DNA of 64,000 bases. It comes from an uncultured Planctomycetaceae bacterium (lineage in GTDB: Bacteria; Planctomycetota; Planctomycetia; Pirellulales; Lacipirellulaceae). How positions within the stretch are numbered: position 1 is the stretch's first letter; each line of letters opens with the position of its first letter. Both the position numbers and the translations under genes were made by a program. Of this stretch, positions 34,281 to 41,173 are shown in pieces. The DNA is taken from positions 145 through 64,144 of the forward strand of contig CAYSFP010000008.1 in assembly GCA_964430075.1 (NCBI GenBank), given 5' to 3'. The notes below the pieces were generated by a model. The model was not told where the DNA came from and ran no database searches. It saw only the letters and a program-made list of their open reading frames with translations.

Positions 34281-35335
34281 CATCAGTATTGGCTCCAGCG
34301 GCGTCTCGCATGACCGTCGTCAACTTGCTCGACGATTGGAGTGCCGTACAACCGGCGTGGGACGAGTTTGTCAACAATCATTCTCAAGGCAGCATCTTCC
34401 ACTCATCGCAGATGGTTCGGGTCTTCGCGGCTGCCAAGCGGCATGCTCCCTTGCCCTTGGCCGCTCTGGATCGCGACGGATGCGTGGTGGCCTTGCTCTC
34501 GGCAGTGCGCGTGCAGACGTTGCCACACCCGTTGGGCCGCCTGTCATCGCGCTCCCTCTGGTACGCTGAACCGTTGTGCCGGGACGATCCGGCGAGCATC
34601 GATGCGCTCGTGGAGTTGATTAAAACGCACGATCGCGCGATGCGACGCCCTACGTTGTTCACCGAAGTGCGCCCGTTGTTCGCACCCGGCCCCGAACGTG
34701 CCGCGCTGGAGCGCTGTGGCTACGAATTTTATGACTATTTGAACTACATCGTCGATCTCACCCCAGGCGAAGAACGGTTGTGGGCGAACCTGCGCAAGTC
34801 TTGCCGACGCAGCGTCCAAAGCGCACGAAAGCGCGGTTTTGTGATTCGTGAGCTCACGGCTGCGGAGGGAGTGGATGCGCTCTACTCGATTCTTCAACAA
34901 ACTTATGGCCGCGCTCGCGTGCCGCTGGCCGATCGCAGTTTGTTCGAGGCGGCGTTTCGCGAGCTGGCGCCCGCGGGCGTATTGCGGTGCATGGCCGTCG
35001 CGGACGGCGAGCGAATCGTCGCGATCGACGTGCTCCTGGCATTCAAGGACAGGCTCTACGCTTGGTACGGCGGCGTCGAGCGAATGACCGGCATCTCGCC
35101 GTGCGAAATCCTCCAATGGCACGAGTTCACGTGGGGCGCCGACCAGGGATTGACGGACTTCGACTTCGGCGGCGCGGGCCGGCCGGACGAGCCCTATGGC
35201 GTGCGGGACTTCAAAGCCAAGTTCGGCGGCGAGCTCGTTTGCTTCGGTCGCTATCGGAAGATTCACGGGCCGTGGCGCATGGCTCTCGCCGAACGCGCCT
35301 ACCAGTTGGGACGAACCCTCATCGCGTCAAAGTAG
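34277..35335 (+). CDS. FemAB/FemX-like GNAT protein
   Basis: LRKSCRRSVQSARKRG, LYAWYGG and FDFGGAG..YGVRDFKAKFGG motifs. Confidence 0.8.
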   Translation: MTSVLAPAASRMTVVNLLDDWSAVQPAWDEFVNNHSQGSIFHSSQMVRVFAAAKRHAPLPLAALDRDGCVVALLSAVRVQTLPHPLGRLSSRSLWYAEPLCRDDPASIDALVELIKTHDRAMRRPTLFTEVRPLFAPGPERAALERCGYEFYDYLNYIVDLTPGEERLWANLRKSCRRSVQSARKRGFVIRELTAAEGVDALYSILQQTYGRARVPLADRSLFEAAFRELAPAGVLRCMAVADGERIVAIDVLLAFKDRLYAWYGGVERMTGISPCEILQWHEFTWGADQGLTDFDFGGAGRPDEPYGVRDFKAKFGGELVCFGRYRKIHGPWRMALAERAYQLGRTLIASK

Positions 35336-35344
35336 CTGCCAACA

Positions 35345-36493
35345 GTGAGCTTAGAGATCACGCCGCATTGCCGATTCCTGCTCGCCGAGGAGCGCGCCGA
35401 CGACGTCTTTCGGCAGTGGCTCGCCGCGGACGCGCGGGCGTGCCGTCTCTCGCCGAGCTTCCGCGCTTACTATCAGATTCGTTCGCTGATTCCTTTGCGC
35501 CTGCGGCAACTGCTGCAGCGACTTCGGCCGGTGAAGGTTTCCGACCGCTGGTGCTATCCTGACGCATTCTTCGACGCGCTCGGCGGAGCGTGTCCTCAAG
35601 CTGACCAGTGCTACGCGCTTGTCCATCCCTGGCCCGATGCCGCGGAGTTTGCCTTCGTCTTGACCCACGACGTCGAGACCGCCGAGGGCATGCGCCGCGT
35701 GCTTCAAATTGCCGATCTCGAGCAGGAACTCGGCTTCCGCTCTTCCTGGAACATCGTCCCGTACAAATACTCCGTCGATCGAGGCGTCATTCGCGACCTG
35801 CAAGAGCGCGGCTTTGAGATCGGCGTGCACGGCTACAATCACGACGGCAAATTGTTTACGAGCCGAGGGGCGTTCCATCGCCGCCTCCCTCATATCAACG
35901 AGGCCCTGAAGTCGTTCGGATCCGTCGGGTTTCGCGCCCCGATGGTCCATCACAATCTCGACTGGATGCAGACACTCGATGTCCAGTACGACGCATCCTG
36001 TTTCGACGCCGACCCGTTTCAAGCGATGCCGGGCGGCATCGGCGGCGTGTGGCCGTTTGTCGCCGGCAAATTTGTCGAACTGCCGTACACGTTGCCGCAG
36101 GATCACACGTTGTTTGTCGTACTTGGCGAGCAGACGGGAACAATCTGGGAGCAAAAGCTGGATTATCTCGTCAAAAGGTGCGGAATGGCGTTGCTCATTA
36201 CGCATCCCGATTACTTGGATTCGCCGCGCCGGCTCGATGCGTATCGCCAGTTCCTGCAGCACGCCAGAGAATTGTCCGGCATGTGGCACGCGTTGCCGAA
36301 GGACGTGGCGTCGTGGTGGCGGCAGCGCGATCGGTCGACCGTTCGCGACGAAGGCGGCCCAGGTCGGCGCATTGACGGGCCGGCCTCCGACCGCGCATCG
36401 GCGGCGACGCTGCACTTCGACATTGCCGACGGTCTTGTGCCGCGCCTCCGTCGCACGGGCGTGCCCGAAGCGGCCATCGGCATCGCACGCTGA
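35345..36493 (+). CDS. Polysaccharide deacetylase-like protein (NodB fold)
   Basis: LTHDVE, EIGVHGYNH, GFRAP, YDASC, ELPYTLPQD and THPDY motifs. Confidence 0.8.
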   Translation: MSLEITPHCRFLLAEERADDVFRQWLAADARACRLSPSFRAYYQIRSLIPLRLRQLLQRLRPVKVSDRWCYPDAFFDALGGACPQADQCYALVHPWPDAAEFAFVLTHDVETAEGMRRVLQIADLEQELGFRSSWNIVPYKYSVDRGVIRDLQERGFEIGVHGYNHDGKLFTSRGAFHRRLPHINEALKSFGSVGFRAPMVHHNLDWMQTLDVQYDASCFDADPFQAMPGGIGGVWPFVAGKFVELPYTLPQDHTLFVVLGEQTGTIWEQKLDYLVKRCGMALLITHPDYLDSPRRLDAYRQFLQHARELSGMWHALPKDVASWWRQRDRSTVRDEGGPGRRIDGPASDRASAATLHFDIADGLVPRLRRTGVPEAAIGIAR

Positions 36494-36543: not shown

Positions 36544-36816
36544 CTGGACACTTCGGACCGCTGCAACATCATGCGTGGGACAGGACAGCGGACAGGCGAT
36601 CGCGGAAAGGACGACGCGGCAACGGGTTGCGGCTCCTTGATCCCTCTGGAGGGTGGCCACTTTGTCCACTTTTGGCGGATTTGGTTGCGCATGGCGGTCA
36701 AGGGGGTGGGGAGTCGGGGGGGGGCAGGAGTCAGGGTTCAGGAGGCAGACCATTGCTTATTGGCCACGGACTACTGTCCTTTAGTACACTACACCACTGC
36801 GCGGCCTGATTTCAAG
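36544..36816 (-). repeat. TGTCC/GGACA-box dispersed element, copy 2 (with promoter-like block)
   Basis: Four blocks match copy 1 in exact register (paired coordinates sum to 36685). 36596-36745 and 36775-36816 also match copy 3. Confidence 0.85.
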
Positions 36817-36913
36817 CTGTTTTTCGCCAAAATCGGGATCCGGTCGCGTCGGCTGCGGCCGACGGGCGGCAGCTCACGAGGCCGAGGGCGAAGCCGTCGA
36901 ACGGCAGACGCCC

Positions 36914-36974
36914 GTAGCCGAAGCGGCTCGCTTCGTTCCGGCAGATCCCGGTCGAAGCGAGCCGCTTCGACCAC
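36914..36974. repeat. REP doublet (GTAG/GTGG-headed palindromes)
   Basis: gtagccgaagcggctcgcttcg and, inverted, gtggtcgaagcggctcgcttcg. Confidence 0.7.
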
Positions 36975-37091
36975 GGCGCCGGCCCCCGTCGCGGCGGAGC
37001 GGTTCGTCGGGCCGATGTTGCGTGGCGGCGGCCGGGCCGGGGGCGAGGACGCCCCGGCTCGCTGGGCTCGCGGGAGCGCTTCGCGGTCAGC

Positions 37092-37260: not shown

Positions 37261-37287
37261 GACGACCTTGACGCGGCTGCCGTCGTT

Positions 37288-37677
37288 ACCGCAACGCGGT
37301 TCGATACCGTAGCCCCGGGTTGGCCGGGCAGCGGCCTACCCTGGGTGATTGAATCCGCGAATGACCTTACGCTGAAAGCGTGACACAACCGCCTCGCCAT
37401 CGATTGGGGAACGCCTTCAGCGTAACCAATCACCATAGCGCCATGCCCCAGGGTGATTCGCCAAGGCGAACAACCCTGGGCTACGATGTGCAACGCCTTC
37501 GGCGTAAGGATCCCTCCGCCGTCCAGCAAAAAAGCTCCGCTGCGCGCCAAGCCGCATTTCAAGCGCCGATGGCGACGTGGCGACAAAGAGAAAACCCCGC
37601 GGCCCCGACCATCAGCAGCGCCGCGGCCGAAGGCTCCGGCACGAGATAGGAGACCTGCAAGTGGTCGATCTCAAAGG
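37288..37677. repeat. ~390-bp direct repeat copy A (REPIN-like foldback + PEP-CTERM 3' end)
   Basis: High similarity to 38604-38992, with nested inverted repeats (gtagccc.gggt...accctgggctac; ttacgctgaaagcg...cgccttcagcgtaa). Confidence 0.9.
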
Positions 37678-38404
37678 AATTCCTACCTCCTGGTCCTAAT
37701 AAGTCGTCGTAGTGACTTATGATGAGGATGTCGACGATCCCCGCGTCGCTCGCAATGCCGAAGAACCGGTCTTCCACCGTTCCGCCATCGAAGGTTTGGT
37801 CGCCAACCAGCATATGGAACGAAACCCTCTCTTTGAGGAACACGCCCACTTCATTGACAGCTAATCTGAGATAGGAGCCAGGTTCGCCGTCGGTCCACAC
37901 GAACCCGAACGCCCGTGGATATTGCCCCGACGCAGAGGGCTCAAAGCGGAAACGGAGAAATGAGGGAACCGTACCGCTAAGCAGCGACGAATATCGCACC
38001 GATTCCAGCGACCGACCGCCGCTGCCGTCGCCATCGATCACCCCATCGTCGCCGTCGACCGAATCGGTGTTCGGCCCCGGCGGCAAAATGATGCCGGGAA
38101 TGGGGTCGACGCCTCCCGGCGGCGGGTCCGGCACGCCGACGCCGGGAGGGAGCGGGACCTCGACAACCCCTGGGATATTGAGCACGCCGTCCTCGAAGTC
38201 CTCGATGTACGTCACATACCGCGGGTCGGACGCGAACGGGCTGTCCGCCGCGCTGAGATACGGCAACGGGCCAACGGCCGTTAGCTCCGCACGTGCGGAG
38301 CCTGAGAGGACGGCAAAGAACACTGCCGCGACGGGGACAACTCCGGTTAGCGACAAAGCGAGGCATGAGGGCCGCCGCAGCGGCGATTGTTGAAACACGA
38401 GCAA
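37559..38404 (-). CDS. PEP-CTERM sorting-domain surface protein
   Basis: Signal peptide, Pro/Gly-rich insert and C-terminal VPEPSAAALLMVGAAG. Confidence 0.85.
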   Translation of the reverse strand: MLVFQQSPLRRPSCLALSLTGVVPVAAVFFAVLSGSARAELTAVGPLPYLSAADSPFASDPRYVTYIEDFEDGVLNIPGVVEVPLPPGVGVPDPPPGGVDPIPGIILPPGPNTDSVDGDDGVIDGDGSGGRSLESVRYSSLLSGTVPSFLRFRFEPSASGQYPRAFGFVWTDGEPGSYLRLAVNEVGVFLKERVSFHMLVGDQTFDGGTVEDRFFGIASDAGIVDILIISHYDDLLGPGGRNSFEIDHLQVSYLVPEPSAAALLMVGAAGFSLCRHVAIGA

Positions 38405-38603
38405 GTCCTCGCGGAGGGCACGATTTTCAGCAAGGGGACGGCGTCACGTCGACCGCATGACGGACGACGAAGCGGAAAGCGGCCAACAGGCTCCATTGTA
38501 CTCGAAAGCGCCAGCCCGTCACGCGAACAGGACGCTTCGCTCCTATCGCCGGCGCCCAGAAACGCCCCGCGGCCTCGCCAACAGCGAAAAGGCCGCTGCT
38601 ATA

Positions 38604-38992
38604 ACCGCAACGCGGTTCGATACCGTAGCCCAGGGTTGGCCGGGCAGCGGCCTACCCTGGGGCATTGAATCCGCGAATGACCTTACGCTGAAAGCGTTAC
38701 ACAACCGTCTCGCCAGCGATTGGGGAACGCCTTCAGCGTAACCAATCATCAATCGCGCCATGCCCCAGGGTGATTCGCCAAGGCGAATCACCCTGGGCTA
38801 CGATGGGCAACGCCTTCGGCGTAAGAACCTCCGCCGTCCAGCAAGAAAGCTCCGCTGCGCGCCAAGCCGCATTTCAAGCGCCGGCGGCGACGTGGCGACA
38901 AAGAGAAAAACCCACTGCCCCGACCATCAGCAGCGCCGCGGCCGAAGGCTCCGCGACGCGACAGGCGACCTGCACGCGGTCGATCTCGAACG
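38604..38992. repeat. ~390-bp direct repeat copy B
   Basis: Offset 1315-1316 bp from copy A. Confidence 0.9.
38874..38992 (-). pseudogene. Orphan PEP-CTERM 3' end
   Basis: Reads SFEIDRVQVACRVAEPSAAALLMVGAVGFSLCRHVAAGA*. An in-frame stop lies ~70 bp upstream and there is no start. Confidence 0.75.
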
Positions 38993-39213
38993 ATGTCCTG
39001 CGCGTTCCTGGTCGCTGCGACGCCGCCTGCCTTCGTACGGCGCCGGGGCAAGTGATTGCACTTCAGGGCGGCATGGCCGGGCCTGACCACGGGGCGTGCG
39101 CGGGGCTCGTCGCCTTGTCAGGCCTGCTCTCGCCGGCGTGATTGCTACATTCCGCACGCCGCGCGCGTCGCCGTTCCGCCTCGCTGCGCACGTGAAAGCA
39201 TGATTTGCGCGAA

Positions 39214-39572
39214 GCGATTGCGGAAAGGACGACGCGATCACGGGTTGCCGCTTCTCGACCGCTCTGAATAGCGTCTATTTTGTCCACTTTTGGCGGATTT
39301 GGTTGCGCAGGGCGGTCAAGGGCGGCGAAGCATAGGTCGGAGGCAGGAATACAAGGTTCAGGAGTTGGGAGTCAGTCGGGGGCGGCGTTCGACTGCCCGC
39401 TGCGGACGGCCGCCCCTGCTCTACGGCCTGCCCAGAAATTCGGCTAAACCGCAAGCGTTGGTCCGTCCCGTTCGACTGGTTTGCTGAGCTGGCGTCTTGA
39501 CTGGCATTTCTGGGCAAAGCCCTGCGATTCTGTCAATTTGTACACTCATCGATGGCGCGGCCTAGTTTCAAC
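39214..39572 (-). repeat. TGTCC/GGACA-box dispersed element, copy 3 (partial)
   Basis: 39214-39365 aligns to 36596-36745 (offset 2618 over the first ~100 bp). 39531-39572 matches 36775-36816 at 30/42 ungapped. Confidence 0.8.
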
Positions 39573-39763
39573 CGAAAACTGCGGAAAACGTGAGCGATGA
39601 GCCGGCCGGGGTTCCGCAGGTTCTGGCCGGAGAATGGCGGCCACGGCTTCCTTTCCGGGCCGGTAGACTGCAGGCATGCTTCGCCGGTGGTCAATCTTCT
39701 TCCCGTCCGGATCAGCTTCCCTGGCGCCTGCCGCCGCGCGTGCGCGCCGGGTGATCGTGCCGC

Positions 39764-41173
39764 TCATGGCAACTGCCGGCGGACTTCGGTGACGATCATC
39801 TCTTCCACCTCGGGCGCCCACGGCGCCGGCAGGCCGTAGTAGACCATCGCGCCGCCCCCTTCGTAGCCGCCTTCGGCCAGCACGCGGCGCGAGGGAATGT
39901 ACGCCATCACGTCGTTGGCGTAGCCGGCCACCCAAGTGTTGGCGCCGCCCAGTTCCCCCTTCAGTCGCAGCGCGTAGTCGACCACGACCTCGCCGCCCAA
40001 GGCGACGAATTGCACGTCGTTTCCCAACCGCCAGCACGCCACCGGATAGGGATACGTCGGGTTCAACGGTCGCCCCGCTTCGATCTCGGCCAACAACTGC
40101 TTGGCGCGCGACGCCACGTAAGGGTCTCGCGACTCGGCATCCGCTGCCAGTTGGGCTTGCGACGGCAAGGACTCGAACGGCAGATCGATCTCGCGGTAGT
40201 CCGTTGTCAACGCTCCGCCGACTTCCTGCATCGCCGAGGTCAACAGCACGGCTTCGACCTCATCCGCCAATCGCCGGCCGTAATGCTCGGCGAGCGCGGT
40301 CGTCCGCCGGGGAATCGGATTCTGATCGCCGCCACATCCCGCCCAGAACAGGGCCACGCACTCGGGATGCAACCGTTCGAACTCCTGCTGCGCGACGCCC
40401 GGGTAATCGCCCGACCATTGAAACCCGTCGAGCACCGTCGCGTGGCAGGCGTAGCCGAACAGCACCGCACGCAGCGTTCCGGCTGCGTCGTGCACGGCGA
40501 GCACGGGCACGTCGTGATCGCTTGGCCCCACGAGCGCTGCGACCGTCCGCCGTTGGGGAACTTCCGCCTCGGGGTTGTTCCGCCGGTTCACGGCAAAGGC
40601 GGCGCGGCCGCTGCCCGCGGTGAGGCGCGCCGGCTGCAGGCCGGCGAGCGCCTCGCCCGCCACGTGCACGGCCTGGTCGACAACGGCATCGGTGTACCGC
40701 TCGATCTGTCGCTGTTGATGGTCGGTTAACCGCCACGCCAACATGGCTCCTAAATTGCGTCCGACCGCGGGCCCGGAGTGTGTGTGCGAAGTGCAAATCA
40801 CAATCTGCGATCGCTCGAGGCCATGTTTCTCGCCGAGCGCCGTGCAGACGCGCGCGGCCGTGTCGCGGTCGATGCCGACGAGATCGAGCGTGATGACGAC
40901 GCCGCGCTGGCCGTCGCCGTCCTCGAGCGCCAGCGCCTTGGCCCACAGGTCGGTCAACTTGCCGTCAGCCGGTCGATCGCGTGCACCATAGCCGGACATC
41001 CACATGGATTCTGGGGGCGTGATGAGAATCTTCGCCGCCCCCGCTTTCCAGGGGAGCGCCGCGTTGTCGACAGGCGGCGTTGGTTCCGCTGCGGTTGACG
41101 GTCGCGGAGAGCAGTTCGCCAACAGCGAGATGGAAATCAGCGCCGCCGAGATGGCCGCGAAGGCGTATCGCAT
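39764..41173 (-). CDS. Neutral/alkaline ceramidase N-terminal domain protein
   Basis: WMSGYGAR, LWAKALAL, TSHTHSGP, YACHAT and GEVVVDY motifs. Lipoprotein-like leader. Confidence 0.8.
   Translation of the reverse strand: MRYAFAAISAALISISLLANCSPRPSTAAEPTPPVDNAALPWKAGAAKILITPPESMWMSGYGARDRPADGKLTDLWAKALALEDGDGQRGVVITLDLVGIDRDTAARVCTALGEKHGLERSQIVICTSHTHSGPAVGRNLGAMLAWRLTDHQQRQIERYTDAVVDQAVHVAGEALAGLQPARLTAGSGRAAFAVNRRNNPEAEVPQRRTVAALVGPSDHDVPVLAVHDAAGTLRAVLFGYACHATVLDGFQWSGDYPGVAQQEFERLHPECVALFWAGCGGDQNPIPRRTTALAEHYGRRLADEVEAVLLTSAMQEVGGALTTDYREIDLPFESLPSQAQLAADAESRDPYVASRAKQLLAEIEAGRPLNPTYPYPVACWRLGNDVQFVALGGEVVVDYALRLKGELGGANTWVAGYANDVMAYIPSRRVLAEGGYEGGGAMVYYGLPAPWAPEVEEMIVTEVRRQLP

Follow-up and report, generated by a model that had tools for sequence, protein, structure and literature searches.

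A REPIN-like foldback element in the tail of a PEP-CTERM gene of a Planctomycetaceae bacterium: probable single insertion, with later duplication and gene conversion

The GTAG-tagged REP super-family and the RAYT transposases have been described in some detail (Nunvar 2010; Bertels & Rainey 2011, PMC3116915; Di Nocera 2013, PMC3733652), and GTAG REPs are already known, according to this literature, from the PVC superphylum, including the Planctomycetes. The element considered here resembles the REP/REPIN-RAYT system in that the GTAG tetranucleotide heads a palindromic hairpin, an inverted pair of units forms a long foldback (REPIN), the copies lie scattered outside genes, the same repeats border a Y1/HUH transposase gene of low copy number, and each transposase paralogue goes with its own hairpin sequence. 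It differs in dimensions and abundance: classical REPs measure 20-40 nt, whereas the unit is here ~110 nt long, with a long hairpin between two small ones, and the doublet ~230-270 nt; Pseudomonas REPs number hundreds, as against ~10 copies per genome. Moreover, the transposase lies below the NCBIfam RAYT equivalog cut-off (NF047646; 23.6 vs 80 bits), and the mobility of the system is putative.

An integron cassette consists of an ORF followed by an imperfect palindromic site, and the locus shares with it the presence of two such sites, directly oriented, around one gene; yet it shows a five-hairpin doublet instead of the single bulged attC hairpin, no integrase on the contig and no cassette array, most copies of the element are not at ORF ends, and the gene has a spacer and a promoter-like site of its own. 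A further parallel may be found in enterobacteria, where Shyamala et al. reportedly described, in 1990, REP-mediated gene conversion and tandem duplications whose join-points coincide with REP, the repeats being substrates for homologous exchange. The repeat edge at the element end and the mosaic identity described below recall such duplication and conversion, of which only the outcome is seen here.

The window, i.e. the whole stretch of 64,000 nucleotides analysed, belongs to a 343-contig draft genome of an uncultured Planctomycetaceae bacterium and contains the following features.

36596..36815, plus strand: copy of the 'GGACA element', a different dispersed repeat found by repeat search (context only)
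36905..37075, no strand assigned: two more short palindromic repeat families, inverted repeats I2 and I3 of the repeat search, with further sites by genome BLAST (context only)
37275..37541, minus strand: E1, REPIN-like element copy 1 (hairpin coordinates, nhmmer family search, DNA fold), made of a 35-nt leader, H1 37505-37493, GTAG head 37484-37481, H2 37480-37447, H3 37425-37367, H4 37345-37313, CTAC and H5 37300-37288
37542..37695, minus strand: T1, tail part of copy 1 (alignments), i.e. the last ~45 codons with the stop at 37559-37561 and 17 nt beyond
37559..38404, minus strand: intact PEP-CTERM gene, 281 aa, TTG start (ORF list and profile matches)
38405..38590, minus strand: intergenic spacer of 186 nt between E2 and the gene start
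38591..38856, minus strand: E2, REPIN-like element copy 2 (repeat and nhmmer searches, hairpin coordinates), with H1 38822-38810, H2 38797-38764, H3 38741-38683, H4 38661-38629 and H5 38616-38604
38857..39008, minus strand: T2, orphan PEP-CTERM tail (…SFEIDRVQVACRVAEPSAAALLMVGAVGFSLCRHVAAGA, then stop), pseudogene fragment (alignments)
39214-39571: second copy of the 'GGACA element', which together with the copy at 36596..36815 brackets the whole patch

The layout is thus tail 2, element 2, spacer, gene, tail 1, element 1. The initial annotation had reported a unit of ~390 bp occurring twice, 1315-1316 bp apart; this direct repeat is real, and global alignment extends it to ~408 bp (37288-37695 vs 38604-39008; offset 1315-1316 bp). 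At 400 bp and 92% identity, the repeat far exceeds what chance would produce. The repeat search resolves it into three blocks, namely 37275-37435/38591-38751 (92%), 37435-37508/38752-38825 (95%) and 37513-37684/38828-38999 (90%), with spacings of 1315-1317 across blocks. Each copy comprises ~45 codons of a PEP-CTERM tail and a 267-nt element of five hairpins, ~220 nt of it within hairpins, which is in substance the composition first proposed (~40 tail codons plus a GTAG-headed multi-hairpin stretch of ~220 bp). Identity along the repeat is mosaic, a core at 95% dropping sharply on both sides to flanks of 60-78%; by alignment, the right edge is sharp and falls immediately past the last hairpin, and the left edge is graded (~70-78% over the first 60 nt, ~95% after). 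E2 shares 92% identity with E1 and 90% with a third copy of the element, located at a paralogous locus on another contig (C163).

The foldback is a GTAG-headed REP doublet, REPIN-like, an ordinary, non-autonomous repeat of the transposase-associated palindromic kind. In its unit, a small hairpin and the GTAG head precede a long CCCAGGGT…ACCCTGGG hairpin, which is followed by another small one, with CGTAG preceding CCCAGGGT…ACCCTGGG on one side of the element and the mirror image, …CCCNGGG followed by CTACG, on the other. Folded as single-stranded DNA, the window element reaches -70.5 kcal/mol (z = -3.9 vs shuffles). The head is conserved or co-varies in 28-46 copies; compensatory changes occur at 29/59 consensus pairs (28 copies), the heads on the left and on the right co-vary, the element aligns to itself on either strand, and in its consensus fold the left and right units are paired with each other. 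Half-elements also occur alone. By nhmmer, the genome holds 11 element sites on 8 contigs, corresponding to 9 independent lineages, a low copy number for a REP family; their contexts are mostly intergenic, and copies are found in both orientations, also between convergent genes. The family is present in 20 of 41 related genomes.

The element family is tied to a RAYT-like Y1 (HUH) transposase encoded on C38, a 151-aa Y1_Tnp gene (34666-35121; PF01797, 79.3 bits) flanked by full elements at 34391-34594 and 35149-35348. The other Y1 genes of the genome each have their own type of flanking hairpin; these paralogues are 40-47% identical to one another and none is repeated, which is RAYT-like behaviour. 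Among relatives, almost all of 19 transposase homologues have hairpins of CCNRGG type, headed by (G/C)TAG, at their flanks, two element loci contain the orthologous transposase, and the element is absent from 9 of the 11 genomes that lack a transposase homologue. The connection of GTAG-headed palindromes with HUH/RAYT transposases, given in the initial annotation as established, holds for this genome and its relatives. The C38 enzyme, which scores 50.9 bits against the IS200 model NF033573 (cut-off 55), presumably moves the element. The system may be regarded as a well-documented REPIN/RAYT-type one in Pirellulales (Planctomycetota), with an unusually large unit of five hairpins, and it extends the sparse record of such repeats beyond Proteobacteria.

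The gene between the repeats encodes a protein with a signal-peptide-like N-terminus, a passenger domain and a VPEP tail, whose C-terminus, VPEPSAAALLMVGAAGFSLCRHVAIGA, matches TIGR02595 at 20.3 bits (cut-off 16) and PF07589 at 16.7-21.1 bits (21.1 in the genome search; cut-off 20.7). No relative above 50% identity was retrieved from 25 related genomes or from genome and metagenome contig collections, and an exact-sequence look-up returned no match. As first annotated, one copy of the repeat ends this intact gene and the other is an orphan, T2 being a VAEP tail within a 62-codon open frame; a relaxed tblastn search of 38950-39800 recovered no remnant of a gene body beyond the tail. The 186-nt spacer carries the sole sigma-70-like site of the region (38522..38495, minus strand) and shares 80% identity with its counterpart on C163. 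Between the C163 paralogue and the 281-aa protein, identity is 79%, and the two loci show ~18% nucleotide divergence; the gene downstream of the C163 copy had no close orthologue in relatives.

Here, I show a single insertion of the element directly after GGCTTGGCGCGC, the sequence that closes T1 where tail and element meet. On C163 the paralogous gene still has an empty site, with a canonical RRRR end and no element after its tail, and C163 has one element only, in a stub copy; the junction lies at the same nucleotide in both window copies and in the C163 stub. The identity of the junction in all three copies indicates that the combination of sorting signal and foldback was formed once and then copied, rather than being a modular site. 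In another genome, G006, an independent copy likewise starts at model position 17 of the element. The two window tails further have in common an 8-nt frameshifting insertion, absent from the C163 tail (T163), by which the Arg cluster of the C163 paralogue (DRRRRSK) has been lost; a sorting signal damaged in this way in both tails is at odds with the constant one that had been postulated. The locus thus offers a concrete case of an element landing within the final codons of a PEP-CTERM gene, the sorting signal being then remodelled by a frameshift. Over the first 60 nt of the tail, identities are 70% for T1-T2, 80% for T1-T163 and 70% for T2-T163; over the 3' part (94 nt for T2) they are 95% for T1-T2 and 83% for T1-T163.

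The reading I favour, with a probability of roughly 0.6, is that of a REP/REPIN-type element inserted once in a PEP-CTERM tail and then copied by duplication and gene conversion. One copy of the element entered the extreme 3' end of the gene; two old tandem PEP-CTERM paralogues would have preceded the present layout, the upstream one of which may have lost its gene body; and the ~350 nt running from VPEP through the last hairpin would have been homogenised later between the copies by gene conversion. Such a history of duplication and conversion is suggested by the mosaic identity, the common 8-nt frameshift and the identical junction, the mosaic pointing in particular to an orphan tail from an older and more divergent paralogue whose core was homogenised later. 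Speaking against it are the right edge of the repeat, which falls exactly at the element end, the lack of any surviving upstream gene body as proof of a tandem-paralogue stage, the PEP-CTERM ends touched by 3 of the 9 element lineages of the genome, over a background of ~2%, together with another PEP-CTERM gene between half-elements in a different genome, G011, and a transposase below the curated NCBIfam cut-offs of both IS200 and RAYT. The edge at the element end and the length of the paralogous C163 segment, one repeat period plus 34 nt (1346 vs 1315), hint that the element, or the repeat, helped to set the breakpoints.

An exact end at the right side of the element, and the missing gene body upstream of tail 2, would also be expected if tail 2 and element 2 were a single local copy, produced by aberrant cleavage upstream of the left end, which took along ~150 nt of tail DNA from the 5' flank and landed ~0.9 kb upstream, with no tandem duplication of the gene. 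Single-strand Y1 transposition does tend to be local, as in IS200/IS605. This origin is nonetheless unlikely: over its first 60 nt, tail 2 is the outgroup of T1 and T163 (70% vs 80%) and so does not look like a recent copy of T1, the graded left edge and the mosaic core fit conversion between old copies better, and REP/RAYT transposition with flank capture is not known from experiments. A primary role as functional RNA or 3'-UTR structure (mRNA stabiliser, attenuator or sRNA), for which and not for mobility the element would be conserved, is compatible with insertion and conversion rather than exclusive of them, and is suggested by the strong conserved pairing with its compensatory changes, by a position directly 3' of the gene and by sub-threshold matches to the Acido-Lenti-1 RNA; enterobacterial REPs are known to stabilise upstream mRNA. 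As the main explanation it appears distinctly unlikely, since the structure is symmetric on both strands, as would be expected of DNA palindromes, since copies are found in either orientation, between convergent genes and at the flanks of transposase genes, and since no terminator-like T-run follows the hairpins (for the same reason an intrinsic terminator was discarded). Probably the element is only a structured extragenic repeat, with a possible part as 3' mRNA stabiliser or recombination hotspot. A duplication created by mis-assembly, conceivable in a metagenome-assembled draft of so many contigs, is next to negligible in probability: the copies differ at ~8% of positions and by indels, their flanks are distinct, and a third, diverged paralogous copy sits on another contig.

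The initial annotation had gone further, taking the locus for a cassette-like unit, by analogy with integrons, in which recombination between the units would shuffle extracellular domains. A cassette system for surface-protein shuffling would have been remarkable; the evidence does not support it. Neither C8, the contig of the window, nor C163 encodes a tyrosine recombinase (17 PF00589 matches lie elsewhere in the genome), the junction was formed once, and >90% of the copies of the family lie away from PEP-CTERM genes; the integron reading is rejected for want of a recombinase on the contig. An attC-like GTTAGGC…GCCTAAC pair, present in the outer arms of some family copies, was likewise discarded, having the wrong polarity, being absent from the window copies and being expected by chance. 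Within 300 nt of a PEP-CTERM gene end are found 3 of the 9 independent lineages of the genome and ~4 of ~95 in relatives, i.e. 7 of ~104 overall, where ~2-5% would be expected; the enrichment, at most ~3-fold, is suggestive at best, so that of the proposed occurrence of the foldback at other PEP-CTERM genes a modest excess stands and a strong association is rejected. Most copies are not at the ORF ends of any one gene class, and the two repeats enclose just one gene, preceded by a 186-nt spacer of its own that contains a promoter-like site. The repeats could physically recombine by homology, with loss of the gene as the outcome rather than an exchange of its passenger, and the element is probably not a dedicated site for passenger-domain swapping.

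In its strongest form, the cassette proposal has the repeat-bracketed gene behave as a composite transposon, excised as a circle and re-inserted elsewhere, thereby moving or swapping PEP-CTERM passengers, the excision being due to homologous recombination of the units or to Y1 'peel and paste' with the hairpin sets as left and right ends. IS200/IS605-type enzymes move whatever sits between two same-strand hairpin ends, the C163 copy spans one period plus 34 nt and carries a 34-bp terminal direct repeat, in G011 a different PEP-CTERM gene is enclosed by half-elements in direct orientation, 1164 bp from each other, and the modest enrichment points the same way. Against these stand the single element of C163, with none after its gene tail; a C163 upstream flank that is not a PEP-CTERM tail able to supply the 34-bp homology; an arrangement that has persisted through the divergence of C8 and C163; the >90% of copies unrelated to PEP-CTERM genes; the finding of no different passenger at equivalent sites, among genomes in which no relative of the protein exceeds 50% identity; the lack of a site-specific recombinase nearby; and the G011 repeats being plain half-elements without any tail. 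Taken together, they make the proposal very unlikely. Just as little credit can be given to direct REP-type units serving as surrogate left and right ends for a RAYT-like Y1 enzyme, PEP-CTERM genes, whose 3' ends would attract elements, being occasionally moved or copied as REP-gene-REP; this would, if true, explain both the one period plus 34 nt of C163 and the gene between half-elements of G011.

A side result is possibly the most important point. The Acido-Lenti-1 RNA motif (RF01687; Weinberg 2010, PMC2864571) is listed in Rfam as an sRNA candidate of Acidobacteria and Lentisphaerae, and not as a DNA repeat. The layout is common to both: a long hairpin, CCYAG…CTRGG, leads to CTA(C), after which come 12 nt of spacer and a small hairpin of UUCG type. 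For the window copies the scores are 25.4 and 22.4 bits, below the gathering score of 37 bits, because of a 16-18-nt insert in their long hairpin; as a candidate for the identity of the window element, a known RNA family was set aside, only these sub-threshold matches being found. Sister repeats elsewhere in the genome and in relatives reach 38-65 bits, and the sister REP units flanking transposase homologues 46-65 bits. This abundant family, the function of which is unknown according to Rfam, appears to represent the REP unit that goes with these transposases, in which case its classification as candidate sRNA should be changed to mobile DNA repeat.

As to the surroundings of the locus, the 'GGACA element' occurs at no fewer than 26 sites genome-wide, none near a PEP-CTERM end, and the two palindromic families at 36905..37075 occur at 30 and 37 sites, the intergenic region around them being a repeat-rich patch.

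The foldback at this locus belongs to a known kind of repeat and lies beside an ordinary decayed gene duplicate. Two direct repeats, spaced 1315-1316 bp and broken by the repeat search into three blocks of 90-95% identity, bear out the ~390-bp unit that the initial annotation had seen twice; one copy does terminate an intact gene, and the other is, as had been claimed, an orphan tail with unrelated upstream sequence, a relaxed tblastn of 38950-39800 having detected no residual gene body on its upstream side. In window positions, the features are:

37288-37695: repeat copy 1, PEP-CTERM tail plus foldback element
38604-39008: repeat copy 2, direct to copy 1; orphan tail of 46 codons, with VAEP, within a 62-codon open frame, plus foldback element
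38404..37559, minus strand: PEP-CTERM gene, open, 281 aa, closed off by repeat copy 1

The C-terminus in copy 1, …VPEPSAAALLMVGAAGFSLCRHVAIGA, scores 20.3 bits against TIGR02595 (cut-off 16) and, in the genome-wide search, 21.1 bits against PF07589. In the global alignment the right edge of the repeat is sharp and falls directly past the last hairpin, where identity of the two copies drops to ~60%, and the left edge is graded (~70-78% over the first 60 nt, ~95% thereafter). The passenger domain (protein of 37562-38404) has no Pfam match; its PEP-CTERM-type relatives, 30-50% identical, come from Planctomycetota, Acidobacteriota, Verrucomicrobiota, Burkholderiaceae and many Microcoleus cyanobacteria. 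The family, one of exported proteins, is widespread and uncharacterised. Close relatives of the locus itself were not found in the collections searched.

Read on the gene strand, the element is composed of:

leader, 35 nt
H1, small hairpin, ACGCC-GAA-GGCGT
head after H1, CATCGTAG
H2, long hairpin, CCCAGGGT…ACCCTGGG
H3, long central hairpin, TTACGCTGAAGGCGT…ACGCTTTCAGCGTAA
H4, long hairpin, CCCAGGGTAGGCCG…CGGCCAACCCGGGG
stretch between H4 and H5, CTACGG
H5, small hairpin, ACCGC-GTT-GCGGT

Its halves mirror each other, and the element therefore matches itself in either strand; folding of the single strand as DNA gives -70.5 kcal/mol (z = -3.9 relative to shuffled sequences). Among 28 full copies, double compensatory changes affect 29 of the 59 consensus pairs, and co-variation also links the two heads, as in CATCGTAG/CTACGATG versus TCATTCAG/CTGAATGA. 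Since half-elements of ~110 nt are also common, the unit is a small hairpin, GTAG, a long hairpin and a small hairpin, the full element being an inverted doublet of it.

Searched with a profile built from both window copies, the draft genome (6.1 Mb) yields 11 sites, namely on contigs C8 (that of the window, two), C163, C1, C4, C207 and C38 (two), with partial sites on C214, C128 and C17. Exactly between the two C38 elements sits one of about ten PF01797 (Y1_Tnp) genes of the genome (C38:34666-35121, 151 aa, 79 bits), with an HVH motif and the SGYGAFS tyrosine; other Y1 genes bear flanking hairpins of their own, such as CCACGGGT…ACCCGTGGctac, CCCAGGGCgtnGCCCTGGG and CCGGGGGC…. Of 41 related genomes, 20 contain the family and 30 a homologue of the C38 protein; 9 of the 11 genomes lacking the transposase homologue have no element match, and two element loci chosen without regard to transposase carry the orthologous transposase. 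At 19 homologue loci, hairpins of the CC(C/T)(A/G)GG type with (G/C)TAG heads nearly always stand on both sides, their sequence varying with the transposase clade. Under curated NCBIfam cut-offs the C38 protein reaches 50.9 against 55 for IS200 and 23.6 against 80 for RAYT; its paralogues are diverged single copies (40-47% identity), as RAYTs likewise are. The association with HUH/Y1 transposases proposed in the initial annotation is thus supported, through the C38 gene between two copies and the hairpin-flanked homologues in relatives, and element family and transposase together match the pattern by which REP/REPIN elements and RAYT genes are defined. In the PVC superphylum, to which Planctomycetes belong, REPs tagged with GTAG have been reported before (PMC3733652).

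The only Rfam matches on the element, 22-28 bits and below the gathering score of 37, are to RF01687, Acido-Lenti-1, whose model has the same layout as the REP unit: a long CCYAG…CTRGG hairpin is followed by CTA, 12 nt of spacer and a small UUCG hairpin. Next to a transposase homologue in the relative G008, sister repeats score 46-50 bits and so pass the gathering score. The source genome holds at least 23 over-threshold matches (54 at E <= 0.01), mostly in inverted pairs ~150 bp apart (C67:24175-24371, C182:765-958 and C9:1138-1330, among others), and sub-threshold matches of 29.5-30.9 bits adjoin Y1 genes on C306, C4 and C67. In relatives the number in one genome rises to over 100 (G033, G010, G005 and G006 are among those with matches), some directly adjoining transposase genes (G033:C418, G010:C404, G013:C752, G003:C2:3318158); five or more occur in 22 of the 30 genomes with a transposase homologue and in 0 of the 11 without. 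First described from Acidobacteria and Lentisphaerae and classed there as a probable RNA (PMC2864571), the motif stands in Rfam as a candidate sRNA without known function. The above suggests that Acido-Lenti-1 is instead a RAYT-associated REP/REPIN unit, not an RNA gene.

The source genome has about 134-142 PEP-CTERM tails. Three independent element lineages touch one and the other six do not; the three are C8/C163; C17, where a VPEP protein takes its final ~14 codons and its stop from a half-element; and C128, 136 nt downstream of the stop. The C17 protein (C17:41592-42548, minus strand) is dockerin-like, has 318 aa and ends in …LVLVLWIVGTTIPGVVRNPHGIRSISPG, its last ~14 codons and TAG stop lying inside the half-element (CCCAGGGTAG); a REP unit now stands in place of the basic end of its sorting signal, and the tail has lost its Pfam score.

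Among 106 sites in relatives, 6 are no farther than 300 nt from a detected PEP-CTERM end, and two in G011 add to them; together they represent about four independent events: the orthologous L035, L068 and L071; the paralogous L023 and L047; L020, a single case; and the G011 case, where two direct half-elements at a distance of 1164 bp enclose a PEP-CTERM gene. This last locus, L009, of a same-genus genome (G011:C319:9208-12317), has an unrelated 226-aa PEP-CTERM gene at 643-1323 and half-elements, 81-93% identical, at 314-442 and 1478-1608, G011 having only one further family match. At L023 (G012:C591) and L047 (G012:C265), PEP-CTERM genes for 351-352 aa (…FRVASIPEPTTMLLGA…) both carry the same element pair 84 nt past the stop, again a gene and its REP copies duplicated together. 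Overall ~7 of 104 element lineages lie near PEP-CTERM ends versus 2-5% expected (random sites give 1.8%, and three other repeat families of the same genome 2/93). The enrichment is at most 2-3-fold, and more than 90% of copies are unrelated to PEP-CTERM genes.

How tail and element came together can be read from C163:4661-6006, a paralogous copy (82.5% identity) of window 38890..37542 that holds 34 nt from the end of a tail, element, spacer and the gene with its own tail. No element follows that gene tail, whose end is canonical (…GFSLDRRRRSKSGLAR…) and whose homology with the window tails ends directly after GGCTTGGCGCGC. In the relative G006, the match of an independent family copy starts exactly one position further on, at model position 17; the left end of the element is therefore fixed, and the tail of the C163 gene is an empty site. 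The junction is identical in the three tail-plus-element copies (both window copies and the C163 stub); the supposed unit of sorting signal and foldback is therefore a single historical insertion, made in the final codons of one PEP-CTERM gene and later copied as DNA. The sorting signal proposed to be constant is itself altered, because an 8-nt insertion (duplicated GTCGCCAC), common to both window tails and missing from C163, shifts the frame, brings an early stop and removes the Arg cluster; the ancestral frame without it is open through the whole element.

Identities are mosaic. Over the 5' 60 nt of the tails, copies 1 and 2 share 70%, copy 1 and C163 80%, and copy 2 and C163 70%, copy 2 being the outgroup; over the 3' 94 nt the values are 95%, 83% and 84%, copies 1 and 2 being the closest pair. 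The elements are 92% (copies 1 and 2), 90% (copy 2 and C163) and 88% (copy 1 and C163) identical. A highly similar core within older diverged homologous flanks points to gene conversion between old duplicates. The simplest history would start from two tandem PEP-CTERM paralogues; the element would have inserted into a tail, the stretch from VPEP to H5 would have been homogenised between the copies, and the upstream gene body would have been lost.

The initial annotation's cassette mechanism is not supported: none of the 17 PF00589 recombinase matches in the genome lies on C8 or C163, and, unlike integron cassettes, with their attC foldbacks and arrays, the locus has no attC-like foldback and no array; the gene has its own 186-nt spacer, bearing the region's only sigma-70-like site. 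Recombination between the 408-bp repeats is possible in principle, and its outcome would be deletion of the gene. Movement of the gene assisted by the element keeps a small probability on account of two coincidences, namely that the right edge of the repeat is exactly the end of the element and that the C163 copy exceeds one period by 34 nt and carries a terminal direct repeat of 34 bp. The order tail-element-spacer-gene-tail is older than the C8/C163 split (~18% nucleotide divergence), and the arrangement has therefore persisted over a long period.

Other repeats surround the locus. A GGACA element, a dispersed repeat of another kind (core TTGTCCACTTTTGGCGGATTTGGTTGCGCA), at 36596-36815 and 39214-39571, in direct orientation, brackets the whole 2.6-kb patch; none of its at least 26 sites genome-wide (75-85% identity, both orientations) is near a PEP-CTERM end, and the repeat has no Rfam match. 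Between it and element 1, the intergenic region 36905-37075 is a pile-up of repeats, with two short palindromic families, CCGTAGCCGAAGCGGCTCGCTTCG/CGAAGCGAGCCGCTTCG (~30 sites) and one around GGGCCGGGGGCGAGGACGCCCCGGC (~37 sites).
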